From Escherichia coli (GTDB lineage: Bacteria; Pseudomonadota; Gammaproteobacteria; Enterobacterales; Enterobacteriaceae): 64,000 nucleotides of DNA. The DNA lies in the NCBI RefSeq assembly GCF_003790525.1, contig NZ_CP033635.1. The stretch is one strand, 5' to 3'. Position 1 is the first letter of the stretch. Every line of letters begins with the position of its first letter. Made by a program: the position numbers and the translations under genes. The notes below the pieces were generated by a model that saw nothing but the letters and a program-made list of their open reading frames with translations, ran no database searches and was not told the DNA's origin. Shown piece after piece: positions 27,305 to 31,313 of the stretch.

Positions 27305-27679
<375 letters not shown>

Positions 27680-28041
27680 TTATGAGAATAAATACTCATT
27701 TAAGGGTGAAAACATTTTGCCTGCAAATGATCATCAGGAAATATAACATTATCGAAGTATTCAAATTAACAACTATTAAATAACATTAAACATTTTTAAC
27801 GTAAACATTAAGAATATTCATCTTGTTATCTGTCTGTATTTTAACCAGAATTAAATCAGTATTAGATGCCGTATGAATATCTCGAAATGTTGCTGTGTAT
27901 CACATACAAATTATCACCGCAGGACCATAGTATTTACATAAGGTTTGTCCCCCGGAGGTAGTCATCGCAGCAATCGAGTAAATTAGCTTCACCACGGTAT
28001 ATTGTTTCCGTAGAATACCCATAATTATAAGAGAGGTTGTT

Positions 28042-28101
28042 ATGATTGAACGTGAACTGGGGAACTGGAAAGACTTTATCGAAGTTATGCTTCGTAAGTA
28101 A
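28042..28101 (+). CDS. ypfM: Small protein YpfM (19 aa), below the ORF-track size cutoff
   Basis: ATG at 28042 reads MIERELGNWKDFIEVMLRK then TAA; AGAGAGG RBS 6-12 nt upstream; followed by an intrinsic terminator. Matches the recalled K-12 small protein between yffB and acrD. Confidence 0.75.
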   Translation: MIERELGNWKDFIEVMLRK

Positions 28102-28166
28102 TTCCTGAGACAAAGTACAAACAGCAAGAACCCGCTGAGCAGGTTCTTAATCGGAAAGTTGAAAAA

Positions 28167-28194
28167 GGCGACACATTAGCATGTCGCCTTTTTT
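28167..28194 (+). terminator. Rho-independent terminator after ypfM, probably also serving convergent acrD
   Basis: ggcgaca-cattagca-tgtcgcc hairpin followed by TTTTTT; an A-run precedes it, so the complement also carries a U-tract. Confidence 0.65.
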
Positions 28195-28199
28195 ATTGC

Positions 28200-31100
28200 T
28201 TATTCCGGGCGCGGCTTCAGCGGGAAGCGGCGGCGCACCAGCACAAAGAACAGCGGCACGAAGTAAATAGCCAGAATAGTGGCCGAAATCATCCCGCCCA
28301 TTACGCCAGTACCCACCGCATGCTGACCACCGGAACCGGCACCCGTGCTGGTTGCCATTGGCAATACGCCGAAGATAAATGCCAGCGAAGTCATCAGAAT
28401 CGGGCGTAAACGCTGACGGCAGGCGTGGAGCGTCGCTTCAAACAGGTCGTGGCCTTTTTGGTTCATCTCGTTAGCAAACTCGACGATCAGGATGGCATTT
28501 TTCGCCGATAAACCAATGACCGTTAACAGGCCCACCTGGAAGTAAACGTCGTTTTCCAGCCCGCGCATCCAGGTTGCCAGCAGCGCGCCGATAACCCCCA
28601 GCGGCACGACCAGCATTACCGAGAACGGCACCGACCAGCTTTCATACAACGCCGCAAGACACAGGAATACCACCAGCAAGGAAATGGCGTACAGCGCCGG
28701 AGCCTGCGCGCCGGAAAGCCGCTCCTGATACGACATCGCCGTCCACTCCAGACCAAAGCCGTTTGGCAACTGCTTCACTAACGATTCCATAATATCCATC
28801 GCCGTACCGGTACTGACCCCCGGTGCGGCTTCCCCTACAATCTCTACCGCAGAATAACCGTTATAGCGTTCCAGACGCGGCGAGCCTGTCTCCCAGCGTG
28901 AGGTCGCGAAAGCAGAGAAGGGCACCATGCCGCCATCTTTATTTCGGACATACCAGAGATTGATGTCATCTGGCAGCATGCGATACGGCGCAGCTGCCTG
29001 CACATAGACTTTCTTCACGCGACCGCGATCCATAAAGTCATTCACATAGCTCGAACCCCAGGCGGTTTGCAGTGTGTCGTTAATATCGTCGATAGCAACG
29101 CCCAGCGCCTGAGCTTTACGCTGGTCGATATCAATCTGCAACTGCGGACTGTCGTCGAGGCCGTTATGGCGCACACGGGTTAGCTCCGGGTTTTCCGCCG
29201 CCAGCGCCAGCAACTGGTTACGTGCTGCCATCAGCGCATCGTGACCCGCTCCAGCGTGGTCCTGCAACTCCATATCAAAACCCGCAGAACTACCAAGACC
29301 GCTAATTGCTGGCGGGCTGCTGGCGATAACGCGAGCTTCTTTAATCTTGTTAAACGCCTTCGTTGCACGCTCGATAATGGCAAACGAGGTGCCGGTCTTA
29401 CTGTCGCGTTCGCTCCAGTCTTTCAGGCGGATAAACATTCTCGCCACGTTTTGCCCGTTACCCCCAGGGCCAGAACCAACAGTGGCAAACACCGACATGA
29501 TGTTGTCTTTTTCATGGGTGAAGTAGTATTTCTCGATTTGCTCAACGACTTTCAGGGTCTGTTGTTGGGTTGAACCGCTGGGCAACTGTACCGAGGTAGT
29601 AAACATGCCACGGTCTTCCAGTGGCAAGAACGACGTCGGCAAACGCAGGAACAGGAACACCATGCCGCCAAGCAGCAGGACATAAATCACAATCCAGCGC
29701 AGGCTACGGTGGAGAATTTTCGCCACCCCTTTTTCGTAGCGTTCGGCGTTGCGGTTAAACATCTGGTTAAACCAGGCAAAAAAGCCTTTTTGCCCGTGAT
29801 GCTCACCTTTTTTCAGTGGCTTAAGTAGCGTGGCACACAGAGCCGGAGTGAGGATCATCGCTACCAGTACTGACAGCACCATCGCTGCAACAATGGTAAT
29901 AGAGAACTGGCGATAGATGGCACCGGTGGTGCCGCCGAAGAAGGCCATTGGTACAAATACCGCCGAAAGCACCATCGCAATCCCGACCAGTGCCCCCTGG
30001 ATCTGCCCCATCGATTTACGTGTGGCTTCGCGAGGAGTGAGTCCTTCCTCACTCATAATACGTTCGACGTTTTCCACCACCACGATGGCGTCATCCACCA
30101 GCAGACCGATCGCCAGCACCATCGCGAACATGGTTAAGGTGTTGACGCTGTAACCGAAGGCATAAAGTACGGAGAAGGTTCCCATCAACACCACCGGCAC
30201 GGCGATAGTGGGTATCAGCGTGGCGCGGAAGTTTTGCAGGAACAGATACATAACGAGGAAAACCAGAGCGATAGCTTCCAGCAGCGTTTTCACCACGTCT
30301 TCAATGGAGGCTTTAACAAACGAGGTGGTTTCATACGCCACCTTGTATTCCAGTCCGTGCGGGAAATACTGCGCCAGCTCGTCGAGACGATTGAGCACCA
30401 GCTCCGCTGTCGCCATTTCGTTCGCGCCGGAGGCCAGTTTTACCCCCAGCCCGGAGGCTGGCATACCATTGAAGCGGCTAAGATAATCGTATTTTTCCGC
30501 CCCCATTTCGATGGTGGCGACATCGCCCAGCCTTACCTCTGAGCCGTCCTGATTCACCCGCAAGGTGATATCGCGGAACTGTTCTGGTGTTTGTAGCAGT
30601 GACTGGGCGTTAATGGTGGCGTTGAGCGCCTGCTTATCGACGGAAGGCGTACCACCAAGTTGCCCAACCGCAATCTGCGCGTTCTGTGACTCAATGGCAT
30701 CAGTGACATCTTTAGCCGTCATCTGGAAACTGTTGAGTTTCGCCGGGTCCAGCCAGATACGCATGGAATATTGCGAACCATAGGCATCGATATCCCCGAC
30801 GCCATTCACGCGGCTTAACGGATCCTGAATATTACTGGCAACGTAATCGGCAATATCCTGTTTATCCATCGAACCATCGGTAGAGACGAAGGCAATGGTC
30901 AGAATATTGGTATCGCCGGTTTTACGCACCGTCACGCCCTGATTTTGCACCGCCTGCGGTAACTTTCGCATGGCTGATTGCAGCTGGTTTTGTACTTGCT
31001 GCACGGCTTCGTCCGGATCGGTGCCTGCTTTAAAACTTAAAGTGACAGATGCCTGGCCGGTGCCACTGCTCTGAGACGACATATACATGAGATTATCGAG

Positions 31101-31313
31101 GCCGGTCATATTTTGCTCGATAACCTGGGTCACGGTGTTTTCCAGCGTCTGGGCCGATGCGCCGGGATAGTTAGCGGTCACTCGCACATTCGGTGGCGCG
31201 AGATCGGGGTATTGTTCAACGGGCAATGAAAAAATCGCCAGGGTACCTGTCAGACACAACAGGATTGCCAGCACCCAGGCAAAAATGGGGCGATCAATAA
31301 AGAAATTCGCCAT
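28200..31313 (-). CDS. acrD: RND multidrug/aminoglycoside efflux pump, inner-membrane transporter
   Basis: 1037-aa ORF with AcrB-type N-terminus ([18 protein letters not shown]). Confidence 0.95.

Follow-up and report, generated by a model that had tools for sequence, protein, structure and literature searches.

Results

The yffB-acrD intergenic region

In the window, the whole stretch of 64,000 nucleotides of Escherichia coli DNA (NZ_CP033635.1) that was analysed, the genes yffB (27305-27661, minus strand, start at 27661, with dapE preceding it) and acrD (28200-31313, minus strand, with its stop codon ending at 28200) are separated by a gap of 538 bp (27662-28199). Inside this gap, divergent from yffB and convergent with acrD, lies the plus-strand coding sequence of ypfM at 28042-28101, which consists of 19 codons (ATG and 18 more) plus TAA and encodes MIERELGNWKDFIEVMLRK. 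The first ten codons are ATG ATT GAA CGT GAA CTG GGG AAC TGG AAA, and codons 11-19 with the stop are GAC TTT ATC GAA GTT ATG CTT CGT AAG TAA. A Shine-Dalgarno sequence, AGAGAGG, can be read directly from the plus strand at 28030-28036, 5 nt upstream of the ATG, and is preceded by an A-rich leader, ATAAT(A/T)ATAAG. The initial annotation had reported a 19-codon ORF with the same coordinates and translation, had called its Shine-Dalgarno sequence good, had given the length of the gap correctly and had identified the ORF with a small protein of E. coli K-12, YpfM. That observation is confirmed, and the identification is supported by the RefSeq annotation and by a protein family match.

The gene is missing from the program-made ORF list because the lister has a floor of 20 aa, and the earlier remark that this track undercounts small proteins on account of its size cut-off is true, if trivial. 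Taken from the sequence alone, the ORF is weak evidence for a gene and is not improbable by chance: 19 random codons in a row lack a stop with P = 0.40. ATG ORFs of 19-30 codons number 278 in the window, and 4 of these are accompanied by a strong Shine-Dalgarno-like motif. The case for ypfM therefore rests on comparative and experimental evidence.

RefSeq annotates exactly this ORF as ypfM, 'protein YpfM' (WP_001386977.1), and the same peptide, in the same position and with the same annotation, is found in K-12 MG1655 as b4606 (YP_001165325.1, 'uncharacterized protein YpfM', 2590807-2590866, minus strand), with the window reverse-complemented relative to K-12. With one Ala added at the C-terminus to reach the 20-aa minimum for a query, the peptide matches the NCBIfam equivalog model NF033843 (small_YpfM) with 59.2 bits (E = 2.4e-16; cut-off 33 bits), residues 1-19 covering profile positions 1-19 of 19. 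The orthologous position, between convergent acrD and divergent yffB, is occupied by ypfM both in the window and in K-12. A natural 20-aa variant from Yersinia scores 32.1 bits against the same model, just below the cut-off, and a Pfam scan of the padded peptide returned no family. Of 5426 complete E. coli genomes, 5425 have the 538-bp gap, the feature under it being annotated 'ypfM: protein YpfM', and 5424 have the 91-nt core of ypfM at an identity of at least 95%. The finding is correct but not new, the gene being already catalogued in E. coli. Since ypfM has stood in the K-12 annotation for years, has a dedicated NCBIfam model and has been seen by mass spectrometry, its recovery here counts for little as a discovery. 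It serves instead as a positive control, in which a reader working from sequence alone recovered a real 19-codon gene of the kind that length-filtered ORF callers miss.

Conservation of the reading frame

Loci were collected with the neighbouring YffB as anchor, one genome per species, which gave 80 loci, almost all from Enterobacteriaceae with a few from Yersinia, Erwinia, Dickeya and Lonsdalea. YffB was chosen instead of the peptide itself because the sample is thereby unbiased towards conserved peptides. The initial annotation had named lack of conservation of the frame as the observation that would speak against a gene, and the frame is kept at the equivalent place, upstream of and divergent from yffB, in 72 of the 80 species. 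With BLOSUM62, the best peptide matches in these carriers reach scores of 66-100 and the next-best hits about 15-25. Of the 72 ORFs, 70 have 19 codons, the exceptions being Yersinia nurmii, with 20 codons, and Lelliottia nimipressuralis, in which the stop codon is lost; frame-shifting indels number 0 among the carriers, and the stop (TAA, TGA or TAG) is at the identical position in 71 of 73 sequences (the 72 carrier loci and the window). Nine residues are invariant (M1, E5, W9, K10, F12, I13, M16, L17 and R18), and the variable positions are 4 (R/H/T/V) and 15 (V/G/D/A/Q and others).

Substitutions in the ypfM frame follow the codon structure, with a mean column entropy of 0.17, 0.18 and 0.59 bits at the first, second and third codon positions, respectively, that is, about three times higher at the third position than at the other two. 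When 55 distinct orthologous ypfM sequences are pooled, the ypfM frame has a pN/pS of 0.12, and each of the two shifted frames one of about 2.1. These patterns argue strongly that YpfM is a translated peptide under strong purifying selection.

No ypfM-like ORF was found in the remaining 8 of the 80 yffB loci (L054, L062, L068, L073-L076 and L081), which belong to several Erwinia and Lonsdalea, one Kosakonia and two further Enterobacteriaceae; at one of them, in Erwinia endophytica (L081), acrD is still adjacent. Among the 72 carriers, 70 show a convergent acrD on the locus, and the distance between the end of acrD and the ypfM stop is 71-254 nt in 69 of these 70 and 445 nt in Y. nurmii. Dickeya undicola retains ypfM beside yffB without acrD. 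Around the coding sequence, conservation across genera extends to the -35 and -10 hexamers, the A-rich leader, the Shine-Dalgarno sequence and the stem and T-run of the terminator, and the flank alignment across genera shows that the 60 nt from the ypfM stop to the terminator are not conserved.

Predicted promoter and leader

A sigma-70 promoter of ypfM is predicted at 27988-28016 (plus strand) from a pattern scan and from the conservation of its hexamers, with a -35 element TTCACC at 27988-27993, a 17-nt spacer and a -10 element TAGAAT at 28011-28016. Both hexamers, TAGAAT especially, are conserved across genera, and the start site implied by this prediction would be near 28023. The same hexamers were listed as the ypfM promoter (TTCACC-17-TAGAAT) in the genomic SELEX study of Shimada et al. 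2014, in which the ypfM<>yffB spacer is a constitutive RpoD site and H-NS binding in the spacer is recorded (PMC3946193). Binding of MarA at the ypfM-yffB spacer was described in Salmonella by ChIP (PMC10268841). The leader and Shine-Dalgarno sequence (28022-28041) show about 90-100% identity over the 73 sequences, and we infer that A-R-N-like triplets in this leader may provide a site for the distal face of Hfq.

According to this prediction, the ypfM mRNA would be about 175 nt long, starting from TTCACC-17-TAGAAT, passing through a strong Shine-Dalgarno sequence and the 19 codons of the peptide and ending at a hairpin shared with acrD. In Salmonella, the same proximal promoter implies an mRNA of about 146 nt (alignment A1), and Northern blots showed a transcript of roughly 220 nt (PMC2515195). 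Since the predicted length is shorter than the Northern band, the start may lie further upstream.

Terminator, 3'UTR and STnc250

The initial annotation had credited ypfM with an intrinsic terminator of its own. The hairpin and T-run are indeed present, 60-95 nt downstream of ypfM, but they are not private to it: the element at 28162-28194 is a bidirectional intrinsic terminator, acting for ypfM on the plus strand and for acrD on the minus strand. Its parts are A5 (28162-28166), the stem arm GGCGACA (28167-28173), an 8-nt loop, the stem arm TGTCGCC (28182-28188) and T6 (28189-28194), and it is assigned to both genes because of the A5/T6 symmetry and because it lies no more than about 10 nt from the acrD stop. 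The stem and the T-run are conserved across genera and the loop is variable.

A second hairpin, CAAGAACCCGCTGAGCAGGTTCTTA, with 11 bp, was found by folding in the 3'UTR at 28125-28149 (plus strand). Its conservation is near 0-40%, it occurs only in Escherichia and its closest relatives, and it lies within a stretch of about 24 nt that is absent from Salmonella (alignment A1). This hairpin scores as terminator-like on the minus strand and could, as a back-up terminator, halt transcription that reads through from acrD into ypfM antisense.

The segment 28081-28200 (plus strand) matches the Rfam family RF01409, STnc250, with 37.1 bits, below the gathering score of 42 (E = 5e-6). The match covers the full model (1-94), with an insertion of 37 nt where the model has 13, and takes in the final 7 codons of ypfM together with the 3'UTR and terminator. 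The score falls below the gathering score because the E. coli 3'UTR has diverged, with about 24 extra nt that include the hairpin at 28125-28149. GAAGUCAUGCUUCGUAAAUAA, the start of the model consensus, translates as E V M L R K followed by a stop. In Salmonella, STnc250 was described by Sittka et al. 2008 as located between acrD and yffB and containing the ypfM ORF, whose annotation in E. coli was credited there to Wassarman 2001 (PMC2515195). That study described it as a stable, growth-phase-dependent small mRNA with 4-fold enrichment in Hfq co-immunoprecipitation (24 versus 6 cDNA reads). The orthologous position and the alignment to the model indicate that STnc250 is the 3' part of the ypfM mRNA and not a separate sRNA; it is filed in Rfam as an sRNA ('Hfq binding RNA'), yet it belongs to a protein-coding mRNA.

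ypfM in Hfq interactomes

Interactome data from two independent methods link ypfM to ArcZ on Hfq. Hfq CLASH recovered 13 arcZ-ypfM hybrids in exponential and transition phase, flagged as present in RIL-seq as well (PMC7213987). The ypfM fragment in these hybrids is TATGATTGAACGTGAACTGGGGAACTGG, which corresponds to 28041-28068 in the window (PMC7213987, supplementary file 3). In one more CLASH hybrid, the ypfM site is joined to a fragment matching the sdsR sequence shown in the PMC7213987 file, and this sdsR-like fragment and ArcZ have UUUCCCUGG in common. In a re-analysis of the RIL-seq data of Melamed 2016, 'ypfM CDS' occurs in 2829 chimeric fragments from exponential phase and has a single unique partner; its SIC is -0.69, and its sRNA score is 0.009 against a candidate threshold of 0.1 (PMC8175672, supplementary table 1). 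The arcZ row has the features given for that partner (96 interactions, SIC 0.921422), and ypfM comes first in the chimera in 69% of the fragments, which is target-like. The EPEC RIL-seq supplements do not mention ypfM.

The predicted ArcZ pairing site is at 28051-28064 (plus strand), over codons 4-8 of ypfM, and the case for the interaction is built on the hybrids and on the conservation of the site. The predicted duplex comprises a helix of 9 bp between ACUGGGGAA (28056-28064) and UUCCCUGGU of ArcZ, and a second helix of 5 bp between CGUGA (28051-28055) and UCGCG of ArcZ. For the ArcZ-ypfM CLASH fragments, the predicted duplex has an energy of -17.6 kcal/mol (with arcZ from K-12). The energy of the ArcZ duplex with the whole transcript is no better than with shuffled mRNA, 72% of the shuffles being as good, nor is it better than with other 175-nt tiles of the window, and duplex energy is not counted as evidence because it is indistinguishable from these shuffled and genomic controls. 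The pairing site does fall on synonymous positions that vary unusually little. Third positions are near-invariant in codons 5, 7, 8 and 10 of ypfM, where GAA is used in 73 of 73 sequences, GGG in 67 of 71 (for a four-fold degenerate Gly), AAC in 66 of 66 and AAA in 72 of 73, and Leu-6 has a purine-ending codon in 66 of 68, which keeps a G-U or A-U pair with ArcZ. We infer that ArcZ pairs over codons 4-8, beside the start codon, and limits the synthesis of YpfM. Among the interactome papers searched, the ArcZ-ypfM interaction appears in supplementary tables only, and the hybrids together with the fixed synonymous sites constitute a concrete, testable lead. The one mildly new angle is that the coding sequence would serve at the same time as a conserved pairing site for ArcZ and possibly for SdsR.

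Detection and properties of the peptide

YpfM was reportedly confirmed by epitope tagging by Hemm et al. in 2008. In a proteomics study of 2025, the native peptide was identified by top-down mass spectrometry with 100% coverage and an N-formyl-Met, and it was detected by DIA and PRM as well (PMC12529367). PRM found it in all replicates only in minimal medium low in Mn2+, where it was detected alongside MntS, and the same study credits Schmidt et al. with detection of YpfM too (PMC12529367). A review of the transcriptomics of airborne bacteria, in which ypfM is still called 'of unknown function', cites it as the sole gene down-regulated after 30 min aloft in one study (PMC12093975).

The peptide has a GRAVY of -0.43 and carries four positive and four negative charges, so that 8 of its 19 residues are charged. 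Its hydrophobic moment at 100 degrees per residue is 0.546, in the top 3.3% of shuffles. One face carries a hydrophobic stripe of I2, L6, W9, I13 and M16 (spacing 4-3-4-3), and the variable residues 4 and 15 fall on the opposite, polar face. Judged on composition, YpfM looks like a soluble amphipathic alpha-helix and is not hydrophobic enough for a membrane span of the AcrZ or MgtS type. Small proteins such as AcrZ, MgtS, MntS and SgrT, which act on AcrB, MgtA, MntP and PtsG, respectively, are regulators of transporters and enzymes and belong to a size class similar to that of YpfM. Like most characterised bacterial microproteins, YpfM may dock onto a larger protein, a suggestion that again comes from its amino acid composition. 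Nearly all species sampled have the RND pump gene acrD adjoining the ypfM locus. AcrZ and MgtS, unlike YpfM, which appears soluble and charged, are single-pass membrane helices. A functional link between YpfM and AcrD was considered and is not supported, given that the tight synteny is broken both ways, in Dickeya and in Erwinia.

Discussion

Our results leave little doubt that the sequence at 28042-28101 is ypfM, a small-protein gene already known from Enterobacteriaceae that forms a locus by itself and is transcribed independently. Type I toxins account for many of the short ORFs left unannotated between enterobacterial genes, and an ORF of so few codons with a terminator behind it has a superficial likeness to an attenuator, but that the ORF encodes a leader peptide or the toxic peptide of a type I toxin-antitoxin pair is scarcely credible. 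There is no co-oriented gene downstream that a leader could control, acrD being convergent and the terminator abutting its stop, and runs of regulatory codons are absent from ypfM; the hydrophilic and highly charged peptide is unlike a membrane toxin, and no antisense RNA family was matched at the locus in Rfam. Hardly more credible, and in our judgement very improbable, is that the locus works mainly as a non-coding Hfq-binding sRNA, STnc250, in which the 19-codon frame is incidental. Such a molecule would account for the Rfam match, for the enrichment of the Salmonella transcript with Hfq and for a short transcript that ends in a hairpin and a U6 tail, as sRNAs do. However, the match lies below the gathering score and the model begins inside the ORF, the very study that gave STnc250 its name judged it to be a small mRNA (PMC2515195), the entropy by codon position and the low pN/pS reflect selection on a peptide, and that peptide has been detected by mass spectrometry (PMC12529367). 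Moreover, the stretch between stop and terminator, the place where a 3' seed would be expected, is not conserved, and ypfM behaves in RIL-seq as an RNA with one partner, mostly first in the chimera and with an sRNA score far under the threshold (PMC8175672). Short Hfq-associated RNAs that encode a peptide of less than 30 aa and base-pair with the help of Hfq are known, as in Spot 42/SpfP (15 aa; PMC8916003 for Spot 42), SgrS/SgrT and AzuCR/AzuC, and ypfM would be like them in these respects. In Spot 42, SgrS and AzuCR, however, the RNA regulates many targets, whereas ypfM has one dominant partner, is mostly target-like and has no conserved seed outside the ORF.

We favour the reading of ypfM as a small mRNA that is a target of ArcZ. 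Its transcript would bind Hfq, with the initiation region and first codons forming the pairing site for ArcZ and possibly for SdsR, and ArcZ pairing would lower YpfM synthesis, either because ribosomes are kept from entering or because the mRNA becomes less stable. It is also conceivable, though we regard it as rather unlikely, that besides coding for the peptide the ypfM mRNA is a conserved decoy (sponge) that draws ArcZ and perhaps SdsR off the rest of their targets. The ypfM chimeras make up 2829 of the 28271 ArcZ chimeras in exponential phase, about 10% for one of 96 partners, and ypfM is second in about 31% of them (the SIC of -0.69 was obtained with k = 1), a share that we judge high for an ordinary mRNA target. 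The transcript is short, stable and Hfq-bound and has a U-tailed terminator, and its synonymous sites hardly vary across the pairing region, with Leu-6 keeping its purine-ending codons. On the other hand, the chimera counts may simply reflect the abundance of the ypfM mRNA, some of the fixation at third positions could come from codon bias, and simple repression of ypfM by ArcZ is compatible with the same observations. If the transcript does act as a decoy, the first codons of ypfM would be doubly constrained, by the peptide and by sRNA pairing, and the mRNA would buffer the activity of ArcZ, and hence rpoS and the other ArcZ targets, during exponential growth.

Other features of the yffB-ypfM spacer and atypical records

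The E. coli genomes NZ_CP053730.1 and NZ_CP088131.1 represent one strain with an IS1A inserted in the yffB-acrD spacer and another whose match to the spacer is confined to its first 210 bp and which may lack ypfM, and they could serve as natural knock-outs. In a tblastn search of plasmids, only chromosome-like records matched. The yffB-ypfM-acrD segment is found in one 'plasmid' record of Salmonella Infantis (L084, CP150497.1, 217.9 kb, IncFIB-typed) and in small 'plasmids' of 20-29 kb from E. coli and Klebsiella (NZ_CP019906.1 and NZ_CP069915.1), and several multi-megabase PLSDB 'plasmids' are evidently chromosomes. The plasmid records with the segment are probably mis-assigned contigs rather than cases of mobilised ypfM.

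Upstream of the ypfM promoter, the spacer between yffB and ypfM contains a second block conserved across genera at 27879-27932 (plus strand), which reads ...TATTTCAAAATATTGC-N6-GTCACATAAAATTTA-N12-CCATAGT..., the second gap being approximately 12 nt. A start just past the CATAGT of this block would give a transcript of about 226 nt in Salmonella, in keeping with the Northern band of roughly 220 nt. The block could be an upstream promoter of ypfM, a minus-strand promoter of yffB, for which it holds the candidate GTGACT-16-AATATT with a TG, or a regulator site. Two ORFs that overlap the block, at 27866-27961 (31 aa) and 27873-27941 (22 aa), were rejected as genes, with poorly conserved ATG codons and variable columns that have no third-position pattern. 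Between the block and the -35 element, just upstream of the latter, lies a palindrome at 27962-27978 (plus strand) whose two arms both change between genera, with the versions AATCAC-A-GTGATT, ATCGC-A-GCGAT and AATCA-GAG-TGATT; it is imperfect in E. coli (ATCGCAGCAATCG).

One Hfq CLASH hybrid joins ChiX to a sense fragment of the spacer, AGTATTAGATGCCGTATGAATATCTCGAA, at 27859-27887 (plus strand), 155-183 nt upstream of the ypfM ATG and upstream of both candidate promoters. This hybrid hints at sense transcription upstream of ypfM, a single read being weak evidence. The RIL-seq feature 'ypfM.5UTR' has 140 chimeras in exponential phase, and the features of its partner match the row of the uhpT 3'UTR.
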